From positions 273,149 through 337,148 of the forward strand of contig JAPLKG010000008.1 of NCBI GenBank assembly GCA_026388185.1: 64,000 bases of DNA. Direction: 5' to 3'. The translations under genes were made by a program, and so were the position numbers. The stretch comes from Candidatus Eiseniibacteriota bacterium (GTDB lineage: Bacteria; Eisenbacteria; RBG-16-71-46; JAFGJU01). Position 1 is the stretch's first letter, and the number at the start of each line of letters is the position of its first letter. Positions 25,823 through 58,862 of this stretch are shown here, piece after piece. Below the pieces are notes generated by a model. It was not told the origin of the DNA. It did no database searches and worked only from the letters and a program-made list of their open reading frames with translations.

Positions 25823-28525
25823 ATGAAATCGCGCGTCTACCTTGTTGACGGTTCCGCTTTGGCCTACAGGTCCTATTTCGCCTTCGTGGGAAGGCCTCTC
25901 ACGAATTCGAAGGGCGAAAACACTAGCGCCGTCTACGGCGTAGCGAACATGTTGCTCAAGCTTCTGAGGGAAGAAAGGCCGGACTACATCGGCGTGGTCC
26001 TCGACTCTCGGGTTCCAACCTTCAGACACAAGCGATTTCCGGAATACAAGGCCAATCGCGAAAAGATGCCGGAGGAGATGCGGAGCCAATTCCCTCGCAT
26101 CCTCGAACTCATCAGCGCAATGGGACTGAAGACAATCGAGGCCCCGGGTTTCGAAGCAGACGACGTGATGGGCACGTTGGCGAAGCGCCTGACGAAAGAG
26201 GGAGTGGAAGTGGTTCTGGTCTCGGGAGACAAGGACTTTTGTCAACTGGTCGGAGACGACGTGAGGGTGCTCAACCCGGGCAGGGCCGGAGAGAATCCGG
26301 TTTGGGTTGACAGAAGGCAGGTCGAAGAGCGTTTCGGAGTCGGGCCGGAGAAGGTAGTCGACGTGCTTGCGCTTGCGGGCGATTCGTCCGACAACATTCC
26401 CGGCGTTCCGGGCATAGGGCCGAAGACCGCCTCCAAGTTGGTGTCCAAGTACGGCGGTCTCGAAGAGATCCTGGGGAAGCTTCCCATCGATGGAGAGGAA
26501 CGGCTCTCCGAGAAACTGTCACAATTCTCCGAACAGGCAAGGCTCTCACGCGAGCTCGCCAGCATTTGCCTTGAGGCTCCCGTTTCAATTGAGCTCGGTG
26601 ACCTGCGACCCGGCGAACCGAGGAACGAGAGGCTCAAGTCGCTTCTCGAAGATCTTGAGTTCAAGAAACTCGTGTCTACTATCTTCGAGCCGTCGGAGTT
26701 GCGGTACGAATGGACCGTGGTTGAGACCGAGGACGAGTTCGAAGAGTTTCGCAGGAAGGCCCGCTCGTGGAAGAAAGTCGGATTGGCCGTGCTTGCGGGG
26801 CGCCATCGTTTCTCGCTTCCCGTGGGGTTTGCCGTGGCAGCCTCGGCGAAGGAGTGTTTTTACCTGCCGCTCCGTCGTGGAGGCCGCGACCAGGGAGACC
26901 TCGATCTCGGAGCCCGCGACCCGGCTTCTGCGGCTCAGGTCTCGGAAGCGCTGGCAGTGTTCGTGTCGGATGGAGGCGTACTCAAGTGCACGCACGACCT
27001 CAAGACGCTGCTCCATTCACTCTCGATTCTGGGCACAAGACTGGAGGGCCCGGTCTTTGACGCCATGTTGGTCGCGTATCTGATTGACCCGTCTCCGGCG
27101 AACACTATTTCCTCGATCACCAGGAGATTCGTGGGAGTCGAGTGGGACAGCATGGATTCCTTCCTGGGGAGTTCCCGGGGAAAGGTGTCACTCGAGGACG
27201 TGCCTCTCGAGAAATTGGCTCAATACGGCTGTGGATGCGCCTTCATCGCGCTACGACTGCAGGAGACCATGTTGCCTCGCCTTGCGGGAATGGGGCTCGT
27301 CAGGCTCTATGAACACGTGGAACTGCCCCTCGCAGTCGTCCTGTTCGAGATGGAGAAACTGGGCGTGGCGGTGGACGTTGATTTCCTGAGGGAAATGTCG
27401 GACAGACTCGCCCAGGACATAGAACGGATCGAAAGAGATATTTTCCGATTCGCCGGGTGTCATTTCAATCTGAATTCCCCGGTGCAGCTGTCGAAGGTTC
27501 TGTTCGACGACATGGGGCTTCCGTCTGTGAAAAAAACGAGAGAGAAACGGCTGCACTCGACGGACGAAGAGGTCTTGGAGGAGCTGGCTGTTCATCACGA
27601 CGTGGCGCGGGAGATCCTCAAGTACCGTCAGCTCACGAAGCTCAAAGGTACGTACGTGGACGTTTTCCCCAAGATGATTGATCCTTCGACCGGTCGCCTC
27701 CACGCGAACTTCAATCAGGCCGTCACCGCTACCGGTAGGCTCTCGATGAGTGAGCCTAATCTGCAGAACATACCGGTGAGGAGCGAGCAGGGCAGAGAAA
27801 TCAGGAAGGCGTTCACTGCCGGTGAAAAGGGTTGGATCCTATTGTCGGCGGACTATTCCCAGGTCGAGTTGAGGCTCATGGCGCACTTTTCCGGCGACGA
27901 GAAGCTAATAGAAACGTTCAAGCAGAACGAAGATGTCCATTCGAACACCGCCTCTCTGCTGTTCGGTGTTTCTCCCGACGCGGTGCCTCCGGAACTGAGG
28001 GCCCGGGCCAAGGTAGTCAATTTCGGAATAATCTACGGAATGAGCCCGTACGGTCTCTCGAAGGAGCTGGGCATCACAACTGCCGAGGCCAAAGAGTTCA
28101 TGGCCGGTTACTACAGGCTTTATCCGGGTGTGGCGGAGTACGTCCGCCGGACGATCGAGGAGGCAAGACGCAATGGGTGTGCCACCACGTTGCTGGGCAG
28201 ACGGAGGCCGCTCGAGACTCTGAAGAGTGAGAACTCGCGCGTGAGGGCCGAGGCCGAGAGGATGGCAATCAATACGCCAATTCAGGGCTCCGCCGCGGAC
28301 ATGATAAAGCTGGCAATGATAGCGATTTCGAAGGAGCTCGGAGTACTCGGACTGAGAGCGCGGCTCATTCTTCAAATCCACGACGAGCTGCTGTTTGAGC
28401 TGCCCAGAGAAGAAGGGACGAAGCTGAGCGAGCTTGTGCGGCACGAGATGGAACATGCCCTGGAGCTGAGGGTGCCCGTGAGGGTGGAGATCTGCGAGGG
28501 TGAGAACTGGTTCGAAACACACTGA
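25823..28525 (+). CDS. polA: DNA polymerase I
   Basis: 900 aa; N-terminal 5'-3' exonuclease (YLVDGSALAYRSYFAF), C-terminal family A polymerase motifs (LLSADYSQVELRLMAHFS, QIHDELLFE). Confidence 0.95.
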   Translation: MKSRVYLVDGSALAYRSYFAFVGRPLTNSKGENTSAVYGVANMLLKLLREERPDYIGVVLDSRVPTFRHKRFPEYKANREKMPEEMRSQFPRILELISAMGLKTIEAPGFEADDVMGTLAKRLTKEGVEVVLVSGDKDFCQLVGDDVRVLNPGRAGENPVWVDRRQVEERFGVGPEKVVDVLALAGDSSDNIPGVPGIGPKTASKLVSKYGGLEEILGKLPIDGEERLSEKLSQFSEQARLSRELASICLEAPVSIELGDLRPGEPRNERLKSLLEDLEFKKLVSTIFEPSELRYEWTVVETEDEFEEFRRKARSWKKVGLAVLAGRHRFSLPVGFAVAASAKECFYLPLRRGGRDQGDLDLGARDPASAAQVSEALAVFVSDGGVLKCTHDLKTLLHSLSILGTRLEGPVFDAMLVAYLIDPSPANTISSITRRFVGVEWDSMDSFLGSSRGKVSLEDVPLEKLAQYGCGCAFIALRLQETMLPRLAGMGLVRLYEHVELPLAVVLFEMEKLGVAVDVDFLREMSDRLAQDIERIERDIFRFAGCHFNLNSPVQLSKVLFDDMGLPSVKKTREKRLHSTDEEVLEELAVHHDVAREILKYRQLTKLKGTYVDVFPKMIDPSTGRLHANFNQAVTATGRLSMSEPNLQNIPVRSEQGREIRKAFTAGEKGWILLSADYSQVELRLMAHFSGDEKLIETFKQNEDVHSNTASLLFGVSPDAVPPELRARAKVVNFGIIYGMSPYGLSKELGITTAEAKEFMAGYYRLYPGVAEYVRRTIEEARRNGCATTLLGRRRPLETLKSENSRVRAEAERMAINTPIQGSAADMIKLAMIAISKELGVLGLRARLILQIHDELLFELPREEGTKLSELVRHEMEHALELRVPVRVEICEGENWFETH

Positions 28526-29153
28526 CGTCGGCGTCCTTACCGTCGCCGTGACTGGCGGCATTGCGTCCGGCAAGACCTCTGTTTGCCGCTTCTTCGAGCG
28601 TCGCGGCGCCAAGATAATCGACGCCGATGCGATAGGTCGCCGAATAGTCGAGGAAGAAGGCAGTGTTCTTTCCGAACTGGTCGGGGTGTTTGGCGATGGC
28701 ATATTGGGCCGCGACCGCAAGCTCGACAGGAGCGCGCTGGCGAGGCTCGCCTTCTGTGATAAGGCGAGCCTCGAGAAGCTCAACAAAGTAGTGCATCCGC
28801 TCCTCATCAAAGAAATTCGCGCGCAGATAGCGGGAGTTGTTCGGAAGGGATTCAAGGGCATGATCGTCGTGGACGCTGCGCTGATCTTCGAATGGAATCT
28901 GGTTGTTATTTTCGACGCCGTTGTGGTAGTTTCTTGTAGCGAGAGCGTCCAGCAGGCGAGGATGCGAGAGAGAGATTCGCTCGGAGCTGACGAGGCGCTT
29001 TCCAGGATACGCTGCCAAATTCCCCAGGCGGAGAAAGTGGCCGGAGCCGACTTTCGCATTGAGAATGAGGCCGGACTTCGAGAACTCGAAGAGAAGGCGG
29101 CCGGGGTCTGGGAAGAACTGCAAGAGCTGCTGAAATCCAAAGAAGGAGGATGA
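28500..29153 (+). CDS. coaE: Dephospho-CoA kinase CoaE
   Basis: GTG 28500; P-loop VTGGIASGKTS; about 217 aa. Confidence 0.8.
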   Translation: MRTGSKHTDVGVLTVAVTGGIASGKTSVCRFFERRGAKIIDADAIGRRIVEEEGSVLSELVGVFGDGILGRDRKLDRSALARLAFCDKASLEKLNKVVHPLLIKEIRAQIAGVVRKGFKGMIVVDAALIFEWNLVVIFDAVVVVSCSESVQQARMRERDSLGADEALSRIRCQIPQAEKVAGADFRIENEAGLRELEEKAAGVWEELQELLKSKEGG

Positions 29154-29159
29154 GTCTAG

Positions 29160-30258
29160 ATGTGGGAAGAAACCAAGGTCAGAATTGCATCGTGTGAAAA
29201 ATCCCTCGAAGAATTGAGTGATTGTCTTTGACGTCGCATCGAAGCGGAACAGTATTCTGCGAATCGACCAGGAGATGTCCAAGCCCGGCTTTTGGGACAG
29301 GGAGAGCTCCAAGCAAGTAGTTCAAGAGCTGGCCACAGCGAAGAGGGCGGTGGAGGAGTGGAATTCTCTCAACGAAAAAATCAAGGAGATCAAGGTCCTT
29401 CTTGAGCTGGCAGAGGAAGAGCAGGACGATGCCGTGCTACAAGATGTGATTTCGGACTGCAACCAGCTTGAGAGAGTGCTGGGTGAATTCAGGCTCAAGA
29501 GTCTTCTGGCCGGCGAACACGACAGAGGCGGAGCAATAGTGAGCATTCACCCTGGAGCCGGAGGGACGGAGTCGCAGGACTGGGCCCAGATGCTGATGCG
29601 CATGTACCTGAGATGGATCGAGTCCAGGGGGTTCGGTTATTCGGTTCTCGATCATCAGGCCGGTGAAGAGGCCGGCATAAAGGACGTGACGATTCAGGTC
29701 GACGGAGAGTACGCGTACGGATACATGAGGGGCGAGAGCGGCGTCCACAGGCTTGTCAGAATATCGCCCTTCGACGCCGCCCAGCGGAGGCACACGTCCT
29801 TCGCTTCTGTTTTCGTGTTTCCTCAGGTGGACGAGACGATCGAGATTGACATAAAGGACGGTGACCTTCGGGTCGACACCTTCCGCGCGAGCGGAGCAGG
29901 CGGACAGCACGTCAACAAGACCGACTCCGCGGTGCGCATCACGCATATTCCGACCGGAATCGTCGTTCAATGTCAGAGTGAAAGGTCGCAGCACCGGAAC
30001 CGTGACAACGCCATGAAGATCTTGAGGGCGAGGCTCTACGTCTATTACCAGGAAGAGAAGAGAAAGAAACTTGACAAGCTCCACGACGGCAAGAAGGAGA
30101 TCGCGTGGGGCAGCCAGATAAGGTCCTACGTGTTTCAACCGTACACTCTCGTCAAGGATCACAGGACTGGCCATGAAACATCGGACGTCGGCAAGGTTCT
30201 GGACGGTGACATAGATCCTTTCATAAACGCTTTTCTCGGATCAAAGGAGAAGTGTTAG
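29160..30258 (+). CDS. prfB: Peptide chain release factor 2, expressed through a programmed +1 ribosomal frameshift (29160..29228 in frame 0, then 29230..30258)
   Basis: ORF1 MWEETKVRIASCEKSLEELSDCL ends at in-frame TGA inside CTT TGA C (29226..29232); +1 frame continues DVASKRN... to full RF2 with SPF and GGQ motifs. Confidence 0.9.
29226..29232 (+). other. prfB +1 programmed frameshift site CTT TGA C
   Basis: Exact canonical RF2 autoregulatory heptamer at the junction of the two prfB reading frames. Confidence 0.85.
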
Positions 30259-30363
30259 GATTTTGTCCCTCGGTGCATTCAGGAGCAGAGCCCGTCGCTG
30301 CGAGCCGGGAGGATGATCCTGGAGTACCGGTCGGGAAGAGGTATCGAGAGGAGAAACGGCCCC

Positions 30364-31737
30364 ATGGCGATCAATCCGCACATCTTCCGCGAATACGACA
30401 TTCGCGGTCTGGCAGAGGAAGAACTCACCGATGAAGTCGCGTTTGCCGTGGGCAGAGCTTTCGGGACTTTCGTTGGTGGTTCAGGCAGGGTTACGGTCGG
30501 CAGGGACGTGAGGTTGAGCTCCTTCAGGTTGAACTCGAGTTTTTCCAGGGGATTGGTCGCCAGCGGTTGCGACGTGGTGGAGCTCGGCGCCGTGCCCACG
30601 CCGTTGGTCTACTTCTCGCTGTTCAACCTCGGCTCGCGAGCGTCCGCCGTGGTGACCGGCAGTCACAATCCCGTACAATACAACGGATTCAAGCTCGCGC
30701 TGGGAGATCTCTCCCTCTACGGACCCGAGATACAGGACGTCAGAAAAATCATAGAATCTTCTCGCTATTCCTCTGGGAAGGGGAGCTCGAGTTCCAGCGT
30801 GATAGTCTCCGCGTACATCGAGGAGATTTCCCGGAAGATCAACGTCGGAAGAAAGCTCCGTGTCGCCATGGACGCAGGAAATGGAACGGCAGGACCCGTT
30901 GCTCTGGAGCTTTTCGAGAAGCTCGGAGTCGAAGTGGTTCCTCTCTTCTGTGAACCCGACGGGAGATTTCCCAATCATCTTCCCGACCCGACGATTCCGG
31001 AGAACGTGGAGGATCTCAGAAAGCTCGTGCTGGCGCAAGGCCTTGATCTGGGAATCGCCTACGACGGAGATGGCGACAGGATAGGGGCGATTGACAGCGA
31101 GGGTAGAATCATCTGGGGAGACCAGCTCGTCGCGATTTTCGCCGGCGAGATTCTCAAGAAGACCCCCGGGGGAACCATAATCTTCGACGTGAAGTGTTCT
31201 CAGGGACTCGAAGAACACATAAGGGTGCTGGGAGGAAGGCCTCTCATGTGGAAGACGGGACATTCTCTGATAAAGCGAAAGCTCAAAGAAACGAAGGGGC
31301 TCTTGGCCGGGGAGATGTCGGGGCACATGTTTTTTGCGGACGACTACTACGGCTACGACGACGCCATTTTCGCCTCCGCAAGGCTGGTGGCTCTGGTTTC
31401 GAATTCGGAGAAGTCTCTCTCTCGTCTGGTGGATGAGCTTCCGCAGTACGTGTCGACCCCCGAGATGCGGCTTGAATGTCCCGACGAGCTCAAGTTTCAG
31501 TTGGTGGACGCGGTGAGGGAGTTTTTCAAGAAGAGTCATAGTGTCATCGAAATAGACGGTGCGCGGATCCTGTTTGGAGATGGCTGGGGTCTCGTTCGGG
31601 CGTCGAACACACAGCCGGCTCTCGTGGCAAGATTTGAGGCGAAGTCTGAGAAAAGGCTTGAGGAAATCAAGTCCGAGGTGCTTGCCGAGGTGGCGCATCT
31701 CAAGTCGGAAATGGCACGCACGCGCTCGGGCGACTGA
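30364..31737 (+). CDS. Phosphomannomutase/phosphoglucomutase (alpha-D-phosphohexomutase family)
   Basis: Active-site serine loop TGSHNP, metal-binding DGDGDR, sugar-binding GEMSGH. Confidence 0.85.
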   Translation: MAINPHIFREYDIRGLAEEELTDEVAFAVGRAFGTFVGGSGRVTVGRDVRLSSFRLNSSFSRGLVASGCDVVELGAVPTPLVYFSLFNLGSRASAVVTGSHNPVQYNGFKLALGDLSLYGPEIQDVRKIIESSRYSSGKGSSSSSVIVSAYIEEISRKINVGRKLRVAMDAGNGTAGPVALELFEKLGVEVVPLFCEPDGRFPNHLPDPTIPENVEDLRKLVLAQGLDLGIAYDGDGDRIGAIDSEGRIIWGDQLVAIFAGEILKKTPGGTIIFDVKCSQGLEEHIRVLGGRPLMWKTGHSLIKRKLKETKGLLAGEMSGHMFFADDYYGYDDAIFASARLVALVSNSEKSLSRLVDELPQYVSTPEMRLECPDELKFQLVDAVREFFKKSHSVIEIDGARILFGDGWGLVRASNTQPALVARFEAKSEKRLEEIKSEVLAEVAHLKSEMARTRSGD

Positions 31738-31779
31738 ATAGCGGAACTGAGACGGACGCGTGCACGCGGGAAGGAGGAG

Positions 31780-32901
31780 ATGACATTGGAGGGCCAAAGA
31801 AAAAAGGCTCGGCCGCGCAAGGTTGCCGGCGAAAAGAGGGTGGGTACCGGGGCGAAGAAGAGGACCAAGGGAGCTTCGAAGCGAACTCGTATGAGCGCGA
31901 GTGCGAGTGGGGTAGGCAAGCGCAAGGCGGCAGGCAGGGACGCCGCGAGAGGTAGCGCCAAGAAGGGCGTCAGGAAGGCCGGCTCTTTCCGCGGTTCCAA
32001 GAAACCTTCCGCAGAAACCTCGCTATCGGCGCCTTCGGTCGAAAGAGTGAGAGAAGAAGCCAGGGCGCTCGAGGAACGTGGTCCTGGTAAGGTTGAATCC
32101 GAGCTCCAATACACACTGCCGGATTCGTACGGGAGAGATCGCGTCGTGGCAATGTCGAGAGACCCTTACTGGATTCACGCTTACTGGGAAATCACGGAGG
32201 AGACTCTCTCCCGTGCCTTGGAGAGCCTGGGTTCCGCCCAACTGAATGTTCGGAGGGTACTCAGAGTGTACGTCAAGGAGGGGGAAGGTGCAGGCGCAGA
32301 GCGAGTTCTTTTTGACGTTTTTCTGACCCCCGGGGCTCGAAACTGGTACATAAACGTAGGAGGTCCCGGGAGAACGTATCGCGTGGACGTGGGTCTTCTC
32401 ACAGCCAGGGGCAAGTTTGTTTGCCTGGCGAGCTCCAATATCGTGAGGACGCCGAGCGACAGAATGTCCGACGTTCTGGATGAGAAGTGGATGAGCCTCC
32501 CGTCAGAATATGAAGAAATGTATGCGCTGTCGGGTGGTCTTACTCGCGGCGTGAGTTCCCCTGAACTTCACGAAAGATTGGCGCGCGAACTCGAAGTGAA
32601 GCTTGCGTCGCCGCTTTTCAGCCCGGGCATACGTGAAGTCCGCGGGGAAAAGGGTCTGGCCAAGTCGTTCTGGTTCATTGTGGACACAGATTTGGTTGTC
32701 TACGGGGCGACCGTTCCGGGCTCTACACTCAAGATCAACGGTGGAGACTGGCGGCTCAGGGAAGACGGGACGTTCTCCTTCAGATGTCATCTTCCGGATG
32801 GCCCCAAGGAAATAAGCGTTTCGGCCCGCTCGTCCGACGGCGCCGGGAACGAGCAAGTGAAACTCAAGGTGAGCAGAGGCACCCGTCAGACGAGCAGCTG
32901 A
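31780..32901 (+). CDS. Hypothetical protein with strongly basic Lys/Arg-rich N-terminal region; possibly DUF4912-like
   Basis: First ~75 aa KR-rich (RKKARPRKVAGEKRVGTGAKKRTKGASKRTR...); remainder unrecognised; lies between PMM/PGM and GH57 branching enzyme. Domain name from memory, not verified. Confidence 0.4.
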   Translation: MTLEGQRKKARPRKVAGEKRVGTGAKKRTKGASKRTRMSASASGVGKRKAAGRDAARGSAKKGVRKAGSFRGSKKPSAETSLSAPSVERVREEARALEERGPGKVESELQYTLPDSYGRDRVVAMSRDPYWIHAYWEITEETLSRALESLGSAQLNVRRVLRVYVKEGEGAGAERVLFDVFLTPGARNWYINVGGPGRTYRVDVGLLTARGKFVCLASSNIVRTPSDRMSDVLDEKWMSLPSEYEEMYALSGGLTRGVSSPELHERLARELEVKLASPLFSPGIREVRGEKGLAKSFWFIVDTDLVVYGATVPGSTLKINGGDWRLREDGTFSFRCHLPDGPKEISVSARSSDGAGNEQVKLKVSRGTRQTSS

Positions 32902-32999
32902 GGAGTTCCGGTATCGAGCCGCTCGTTCGTCGGAGATTTCTGCTGGATCGAGACGTCGATTGAGGCACGTTGCGCCTTGTTTGACGAGATGGTGGAAAA

Positions 33000-34598
33000 A
33001 TGAGTGCAGATCACAAAGGCTATCTCTGTCTCGTACTTCACGCACACCTTCCGTACGTTAGGCATCCCGAGTACGAGCTTTTCTTGGAAGAGGATTGGCT
33101 CTACGAGAGTATTACGGAAACGTACATTCCTCTTCTGATGGTTCTGGAAAGGCTGACTGCCGAAGGTGTTCCTTACAGAGTGACGATTTCACTTAGTCCG
33201 AGTCTGGTAGGCATGCTGCGGGACCCGCTCCTCCAGGATCGTTATGTTCGACACATCGAGCGATTGATCGACCTTGCCCACAGAGAGGTGGAACGAACCC
33301 AAGGAGATTCGGACTTCAATAGGCTTGCTCGGATGTATCTCGATAGCTTCACGAGCGCCAGGAACTACTTCTTGGATAGATGCCGGAAAGATCTCACTCA
33401 AGGTTTTCGAGACCTCCAGGAACACGGTGGAGTTGAGCTCATACCTTGTGCGGCCACGCACGGATATCTTCCGCTCATGACAATGGTGCCCGAGGCCGTA
33501 CGGGCTCAGATTAGTGTCGCCGCGAGCCACCACGAACGGTGCTTCGGCCGCAGGCCTCGAGGCATGTGGCTGCCGGAGTGCGGGTACGAACCGGGTATCG
33601 ACCGCTTCCTCAAGGAAGCAGGACTGAGATTCTTCTTTACCGACGCCCACGGGATTCTGCACGCTTCTCCGAGACCCAAGCACGGGGTCTTTGCTCCGAT
33701 TTTCTGTCCTTCCGGGACCGCCGCCTTCGGAAGAGACCTCGAATCGTCAAAACAAGTCTGGAGCTCCGTTGAAGGCTATCCGGGAGACTACTGGTACAGA
33801 GAATTCTACCGGGACATCGGCTACGACATGGACTACGAATACATCAGGCCTTACATTTGTGCCGACGGGAAGAGAAAGAACACGGGAATCAAGTATTATC
33901 GCGTGACCGGGCGCACTCCGCGCAAAGAGATATACGATCCTGACGCGGCGCTCGAGAAGGCCGCGATGCACGCGGCAAACTTCATGTTCAACAGGGAAAA
34001 GCAGGTGGAGTACCTCTACGACAAGATGGACGGACGTCGCCCCATCATAGTGGCGCCGTACGACGCCGAGCTTTTCGGACACTGGTGGTACGAGGGACCT
34101 CGGTGGATAGAGTTCCTGATCAGAAAGATGGCCTACGACCAGAAGACTCTGAAACTTGTGACGCCCAGCGAATATCTGGACGAAAACCCTCAGAACCAGA
34201 TTGCCACTCCCTCTCTTTCGAGTTGGGGTTGGAAGGGTTACAGCGAGGTATGGCTTGAGGGCAGTAACGACTGGATCTATCCCCACCTTCACATGGCGGC
34301 GCAGCGGATGGTCGAACTGGCCACGACTTTCAAGGAGCCCACGCCTTTGGAAGGGCGCGCCCTGGCGCAGGCTGCCCGCGAACTACTCTTGGCTCAGAGC
34401 AGTGACTGGGCGTTCATAATGACGTCAGGCACGATGGTTCCCTACGCCGTGAGAAGAACAAAGGAACACGTGGGCAGGTTCACAGAACTGTACGACGGCC
34501 TGAGGTCTCATTGCATCGACGTGAGAAAACTCGAGGAAATGGAATGGAAAGATAACATCTTTCCTGAGATCGACTATCGCGTGTACGCCCCCAGGTAA
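33000..34598 (+). CDS. GH57-family 1,4-alpha-glucan branching enzyme (DUF1957-type)
   Basis: N-terminal LCLVLHAHLPYVRHPE resembles characterised GH57 branching enzymes as I recall them; about 530 aa. Confidence 0.8.
   Translation: MSADHKGYLCLVLHAHLPYVRHPEYELFLEEDWLYESITETYIPLLMVLERLTAEGVPYRVTISLSPSLVGMLRDPLLQDRYVRHIERLIDLAHREVERTQGDSDFNRLARMYLDSFTSARNYFLDRCRKDLTQGFRDLQEHGGVELIPCAATHGYLPLMTMVPEAVRAQISVAASHHERCFGRRPRGMWLPECGYEPGIDRFLKEAGLRFFFTDAHGILHASPRPKHGVFAPIFCPSGTAAFGRDLESSKQVWSSVEGYPGDYWYREFYRDIGYDMDYEYIRPYICADGKRKNTGIKYYRVTGRTPRKEIYDPDAALEKAAMHAANFMFNREKQVEYLYDKMDGRRPIIVAPYDAELFGHWWYEGPRWIEFLIRKMAYDQKTLKLVTPSEYLDENPQNQIATPSLSSWGWKGYSEVWLEGSNDWIYPHLHMAAQRMVELATTFKEPTPLEGRALAQAARELLLAQSSDWAFIMTSGTMVPYAVRRTKEHVGRFTELYDGLRSHCIDVRKLEEMEWKDNIFPEIDYRVYAPR

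Positions 34599-58777: not shown

Positions 58778-58862
<85 letters not shown>

Follow-up and report, generated by a model that had tools for sequence, protein, structure and literature searches.

An RF2 gene with a predicted +1 frameshift site and a degenerate internal Shine-Dalgarno element in a subclade of Candidatus Eisenbacteria

Positions 29160-30258 of the window (the whole 64,000-nt stretch of DNA that was analysed) were read as prfB, the gene for RF2, and the sequence indicates, with a probability of about 0.93, that the gene is expressed by the classical autoregulatory +1 programmed frameshift and that the internal Shine-Dalgarno (SD) element of its shift site is degenerate in the subclade to which it belongs. 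The frame-0 part, ORF0, opens at ATG 29160 and consists of 23 sense codons (MWEETKVRIASCEKSLEELSDCL; 29160..29228, + strand). The initiation SD, AAGGAGG, was read from the sequence at 29143..29149 (+ strand), 10 nt 5' of the ATG and within the last codons at the 3' end of coaE; in the alignment of relatives, this position carries GGAGG or GGGGG in all of them. The stop codon of coaE (29151-53) sits between the SD and the ATG of prfB. ORF0 runs into the shift cassette CUU UGA C (29226..29232, + strand), which is composed of CTT at 29226-28, the in-frame TGA at 29229-31, and C at 29232, and thus offers the slippery CUU_U, an RF2-specific stop, and a C that makes for weak termination. The rest of RF2, which matches Pfam PCRF and RF-1, lies in the +1 frame and extends from GAC for 342 codons to a TAG stop (29230..30258, + strand). 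The codon that would stand in the E site when the shift occurs was read as UGU (Cys; 29223..29225, + strand). At the position of the canonical AGGGGG lies a degenerate SD-like element, UGAGUGAUU (29215..29223, + strand), which adjoins the E-site codon with a 1-nt overlap. The sequence 5' of the shift site was read again as GAAUUGAGUGAUUGU, the same as had been quoted in a preliminary description of this DNA; its account of 23 codons ending at an in-frame TGA within CTT TGA C and continued in the +1 frame from GAC 29230 agrees with the letters and with the translation.

The reading frames leave little room for the position of the shift. A TGA at 29215-17 closes the +1 frame, which is open from GTG 29218 onwards; from there, 346 codons run to the TAG at 30256-58. 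Since the +1 frame is closed until 29218 and frame 0 stops at 29229-31, the shift must fall within 29218-29231, and CUU_U is the sole known slippery site in this interval. A program-made list of open reading frames contains only 29218..30258 (346 aa), as had been pointed out for the track. UGA is present in both alternative frames of the element at 29215-29221, the +1 frame having it at 29215-17 and the +2 frame at 29219-21, so that a ribosome leaving its frame before the cassette would terminate at once; these UGA triplets are probably incidental.

The identity of the product was evaluated with the joined protein of 365 aa, obtained by connecting 29160-29228 with 29230-30258. Its score with TIGR00020, the NCBIfam model of prfB, was 521.4 bits (cutoff, 370), and RF1 models gave 267-269 bits, which are under their cutoffs of 400 and 423. 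The Pfam domains PCRF (PF03462) and RF-1 (PF00472) were matched at 2.4e-54 and 2.8e-45, respectively. The SPF motif for RF2-specific stop-codon recognition is encoded at 29764-29772 (residue 202 of the joined protein), and the catalytic GGQ is encoded at 29899-29907 (residue 247). The top matches among solved structures were RF2 chains (E about 1e-116), and the alignment with the RF2 structure 9fy1 spans residues 7-362 and crosses the junction; in the structure alignment, L23-D24 at the junction pairs with L-D of B. subtilis RF2. The ORF0-encoded residues take part in these matches, residues 7-23 aligning with the N-terminus of B. subtilis RF2 and residues 11-23 with positions 3-15 of TIGR00020. 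The preliminary description had called the gene prfB with a canonical +1 site and had proposed aligning the joined translation with RF2 proteins. Both points were borne out, as the joined protein scores above the cutoff of the RF2 equivalog model and RF2 structures align from residue 7 through the L23-D24 junction.

These alignments bear on the alternative that RF2 is made with no frameshift, by internal initiation at GTG 29218 (346 aa), ORF0 being an unrelated upstream ORF. Although the +1 frame has no earlier start than GTG 29218, which is also the one that gene callers pick, no SD precedes it (duplex, -1.0 kcal/mol), and the peptide encoded by ORF0 is homologous to the N-terminal helix of RF2. 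Besides, ORF0 is conserved as a frame-0 protein among the relatives described below, and two of them (L172/L173) have GAC TGT instead of a GTG there, their gene calls starting at a downstream ATG. Internal initiation is, thus, extremely improbable, and the frameshift reading is retained.

The relatives comprise 13 loci, 12 found by exact-protein look-up and one (L089) found in a metagenome scan among the matches listed. They come from separate JGI, ENA, NCBI, and Logan records and include one complete genome of 2.69 Mb. The best named homologues belong to Candidatus Eisenbacteria/Eiseniibacteriota, including a metagenome-assembled genome formerly labelled Latescibacteria DG_63; no identical RF2 protein was present in the collection searched, in which the best match was 90% identical. 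In all 13 loci, ORF0 is 23 codons long and the CTTTGAC that comes after it is identical. The RF2 proteins are 73-90% identical, yet of the degenerate codon columns in which the amino acid is invariant, no more than 9-13% keep to one codon. On the 5' side of the site, substitutions among the relatives were seen at 15 of 18 frame-0 third positions as against 7 of 18 and 9 of 18 at the others, and on the 3' side at 14 of 14 third positions of the +1 frame as against 9 of 15 and 6 of 14; the codon-position pattern is thus that of frame 0 before the shift site and that of frame +1 after it. The conserved ORF0, the conserved cassette, and this pattern together exclude a sequencing error, a pseudogene, and an unrelated upstream ORF. 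The gene order polA-coaE-prfB-phosphomannomutase/phosphoglucomutase-DUF4912-GH57 branching-enzyme-like (25823-34598 in the window) is kept from polA to GH57 in L082-L088 and L170-L173 where flanking sequence is available; L081 has its DUF4912 gene directly 3' of prfB.

The site was also compared with a panel of 144 other prfB shift sites, mostly of distant RF2, which were taken from genome and metagenome scans among the matches listed. CTTTGAC is the cassette of 120 of these 144 sites and was also present in 70 of 80 diverse GTDB genomes that were retrieved by means of the protein, again among the matches listed; the remaining 10 GTDB loci have no shift site. With the 7-mer at the corresponding place in the 13 relatives' loci as well, its presence in the window is no coincidence. 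Three of the panel sites listed have UAA instead of UGA (CTTTAAA, CTTTAAG). The preliminary description had allowed for a sequencing error at 29226..29232, such as a single-base insertion, and under this alternative an indel from sequencing or assembly broke a gene that in reality has one continuous frame. Nothing speaks for it beyond the general possibility of such errors and a short T run at the site, but the 13 loci come from separate records and share the same 23-codon ORF0 and CTTTGAC, and the 7-mer is the exact cassette of the 120 listed panel sites. The chance that an indel created the frame break is negligible, a sequencing error being ruled out by the identity of the cassette in the relatives' loci.

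We evaluated the strength of the SD-like element by calculating the duplex of the 16 nt 5' of the shift site with the core anti-SD (ASD), ACCUCCUUA; all pairing energies in this report assume the universal 16S tail GAUCACCUCCUU, which may not be that of this lineage. No 16S 3' end was found in the 883 kb of sequence searched, and a canonical 16S tail was assumed because genes of the window carry ordinary SDs (GGAGG, AAGGAG, and GGAGGTG). In addition, half of the regions upstream of first starts in the window reach -6 kcal/mol or better, as compared to 17% of random positions. The ribosome of this organism evidently uses its anti-SD. The duplex of the window and its clade with ACCUCCUUA was -2.2 kcal/mol, whereas that of the panel averaged -8.0 kcal/mol (sd 2.3, n=144), none of the sites listed being weaker than the window's. 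No G-rich SD (consensus AGGGGG) was found 3 nt 5' of CUU, where the sequence is GAGUGAU UGU CUU. Pairing ranged from -4.2 kcal/mol (UCACCUCCUUA) to -7.6 kcal/mol (UCACCUCCUUUCU) in RNAduplex, an energy program different from that of Naeem et al., whose bins for weak pairing with the ASD (nt 1532-1544) are above -7 or above -4 kcal/mol (PMC10798248). The weak pairing follows the clade: it is common to its 10 distinct sequences and absent in the sister lineages. These observations uphold the earlier statement that there is no strong SD-like element just upstream of the shift site and qualify it, since some rRNA complementarity, GUGAU(U):(G)AUCAC, is present. Because the SD is known from PMC10798248 to be dispensable in many clades, the absence of a G-rich SD does not remove this prfB from the frameshift system.

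As to the E-site codon, NNU is present at 120 of the 144 panel sites listed, with CAU at 54 sites and UAU at 41. UGU, the codon of the window, occurs once in the panel; this site, L001, is likewise weak in its SD, as is L006, whose codon is UGC. Almost no rRNA complementarity is seen in two further panel sites, L135 (CGGGCCTAT) and L044 (CAGAGACTCT).

The relatives were grouped on the basis of an RF2 identity matrix. GAGTGATTGT is common to the window, L081, and L082, to L083, L084, L085, and L170 (with GAGTGATTAT in L083), and to a separate lineage, L087. Within the group of the window, the element is changed in a derived pair, to GAGTGGTTGT in L169 and to GAAAGACTGT in L172/L173, the replacements being GGU and AAAGAC, respectively. 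The outgroup, L088 and L171 (73-78% identical RF2), carries the canonical CGGAGGTTTT and CGGGGGTTTT (GGAGG and GGGGG), and a more distant Eisenbacteria genome (L004) carries AGGGGAC. A canonical SD in the outgroup and a degenerate one in the subclade place the loss of the SD in the ancestor of the subclade.

The degenerate element is itself conserved. Of the 10 distinct sequences of the clade, 8 have an identical UGAGUGAUU, and within these 8 no stretch of the gene free of nucleotide changes is longer than TGAGTGATT (29215-23). A single codon is used in only 27 of the 215 amino-acid-invariant degenerate columns of the 8 GAGTGAT sequences, with GAA, AGT, and GAT, immediately 5' of the E-site codon, among those kept, although this statistic is partly circular as the 8 were defined by sharing the motif. 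The Glu codon at 29211-29213, five before the stop, is GAA in L081-L089 and L169-L173, including both SD-bearing outgroups, and it is the only single-codon column of the 17 invariant Glu columns in the set of 8. This GAA could extend the pairing with rRNA if the 16S tail ends in UUUCU.

This conservation can be explained in another way, namely that UGAGUGAUU is not a decayed SD but a register-shifted stimulator that pairs with 16S nt 1530-1538, GAUCAC(C)UC, in place of AGGGGG:CCUCCU. The proposed pairing consists of GUGAU(U):(G)AUCAC and GAG:CUC, separated by a one-base bulge, leaves the same 3-nt mRNA spacer to CUU as in the canonical site, and amounts to -6.7 kcal/mol with GAUCACCUCCUUA, the 18th percentile of the panel among the matches listed; it reaches -8.5 to -10.1 kcal/mol if the tail is GAUCACCUCCUUUCU, which has the UUUCU end. 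These energies were computed on the assumed universal tail rather than that of this lineage. T29219 (in AGT) and T29222 (in GAT), both synonymous positions, do not vary among the 8 sequences, and columns with a single codon are few; as noted above, however, the 8 were picked by the motif. The A-to-G change in L169 retains a G.U pair with U1532, and about 11 other panel sites among the matches listed use GGUG/GGUGA, which pairs with (U)CACC, 5' of the CCUCC core. These loci are L001, L006, L014, L074, L106, L116, L125, L132, L134, L160, and L167, and they include KSB1, Cytophagia, Clostridia, and metagenome bins. On the other hand, L172/L173, whose RF2 is 87% identical, have AAAGAC instead (duplex, -1.8 kcal/mol), which implies that the element is dispensable, and pairing at 1530-1534 adjoins helix 45 and may be sterically constrained. 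Because two relatives are without the element, we treat the pairing of UGAGUGAUU with 16S 1530-1538 as a hypothesis only, and we consider a register-shifted stimulator unlikely. If it were true, what counts for the +1 stimulator would be where on the mRNA the duplex ends, and not which rRNA nucleotides are paired.

An RNA structure might also take the place of the SD. Engineered hairpins are known to mimic the SD:anti-SD duplex (PMC6321510), and an upstream hairpin, AAUCNCUC:GAGUGAUU, could refold behind the ribosome and do the same here. RNAalifold predicted an interrupted stem of 7 bp at alignment columns 61-84, and the local fold was -6.3 kcal/mol in the window and -7.1 kcal/mol in L087. 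However, the consensus energy of the RNAalifold model was only -4.0 kcal/mol with a covariation term of 0.02, the 136-nt region had z=+0.18, and z was about 0 for the 30 nt upstream in most clade members. The element is unpaired in the ensemble of L081, L082, L083, and L085, the stem is broken in L169 and L172, and T29219 is unpaired in the model, so that its conservation is left unexplained. A hairpin acting as an SD mimic is therefore very improbable, being largely refuted by the absence of covariation in the consensus fold, the single-sequence folds, and the shuffles. A search of Rfam gave no RNA family in the prfB region, the sole match in the window being a tRNA.

From this anatomy we infer a frameshift event under autoregulation by RF2, which would proceed as described below. 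Initiation at ATG 29160, downstream of AAGGAGG, would be followed by translation of 23 codons, after which the ribosome would pause, its A site holding UGA C and its peptidyl-tRNA-Leu paired to CUU. Abundant RF2 would bring about termination at UGA C. When RF2 is scarce, tRNA-Leu would re-pair on UUU (+1), GAC 29230 would be decoded, and the 365-aa protein would be made. Most likely, the slippery site and the weak stop context do most of the work, rRNA pairing contributing little if anything. According to work cited in PMC10798248, E. coli frameshifting is almost lost when the SD is mutated. If RF2 is made here in adequate amounts with no strong SD, either less frameshifting must be required or another feature must compensate. 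Judging from F. johnsoniae and from the E. coli SD mutants cited in that paper, frameshifting is probably less efficient than in E. coli, and the strong initiation SD may offset the lower efficiency.

The tRNA match is a tRNA-Leu with anticodon GAG at 58778-58862 (+ strand), predicted by both ARAGORN and Rfam; no other RNA gene was detected in the window. This isoacceptor would be expected to decode CUU and so to be the one that slips at the prfB site. Among + strand ORFs of at least 120 aa in the window, the stops were about 18 TGA, 16 TAG, and 5 TAA, these being approximate counts from mechanical gene calls. TAG, the stop of prfB as well, thus makes up close to 40% of them, an unusually large part for a bacterium; the high share of TAG may bear on the balance of demand between RF1 and RF2 and on the tolerance of a weak shift site.

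The main value of these results is practical. The warning that automated annotation would truncate the gene is confirmed by the databases: nine homologue clusters (343-346 aa) begin with VIVFD, MIVFD, or MVVFD, which corresponds to the equivalent GTG, and other homologues begin at a downstream ATG (326-327 aa). Among the homologues, only NCBI entries have the joined 365-aa RF2, and most metagenome gene calls of the relatives are recorded as the GTG-start product. The correct annotation is one RF2 of 365 aa with ribosomal slippage at 29228/29230 and not a protein of 346 aa from GTG 29218.

The site shares most of its parts with E. coli prfB, whose frameshift was described in 1987 and is summarised in PMC12421855 and PMC5009743. 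Both have a short ORF0 (23 codons here and 25 in E. coli), CUU_U, UGA followed by C, an L-D junction, an NNU codon in the E site, and the rest of the gene in the +1 frame. Unlike E. coli prfB as given there, the present site has GAGUGAU in place of AGGGGG, with no G-rich SD 3 nt upstream, and its E-site codon is UGU rather than UAU. In a survey of prfB in more than 12,000 genomes (Prince, Lin and Feaga, mBio 2025, PMC12421855), the SD-like sequence and its spacing were almost universally conserved, which makes SD-degenerate clades a minority; the subclade of Eisenbacteria agrees with the consensus of that survey in the slippery site, the TGA, and the C after the stop, and is among the exceptions in the SD-like sequence.

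The departure from the E. coli paradigm that had been remarked on earlier is thus real, but it is not new. Naeem et al. (RNA 2024, PMC10798248), who analysed 2,686 bacteria, report that many clades have lost the prfB SD, whether or not SDs are widely used in their genomes. SD-degenerate sites are reported there for Winogradskyella psychrotolerans and other Flavobacteriales and for most Planctomycetota, Firmicutes_A/B, and Cyanobacteria, and the SD-less Winogradskyella site gave 5-12% frameshifting in F. johnsoniae. Like those sites, the present one keeps CUU UGA C and has lost or degraded the internal SD clade-wise, and the loss is unrelated to genome-wide SD use, the genes of the window having canonical SDs. 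It differs from the cases described there in its lineage, a subclade of Candidatus Eisenbacteria that is unnamed in the main text of the paper, and in its residual element, which is conserved at the nucleotide level in most members and complementary to 16S 1530-1538. The analysis adds a lineage to the prfB sites with no strong internal SD, within a candidate phylum that itself uses SDs. The SD-bearing sister lineages provide a usable natural contrast on the contribution of the SD to RF2 autoregulation, although this opens no new question. The SD-degenerate prfB site of this subclade is one more clade of an already described variant.
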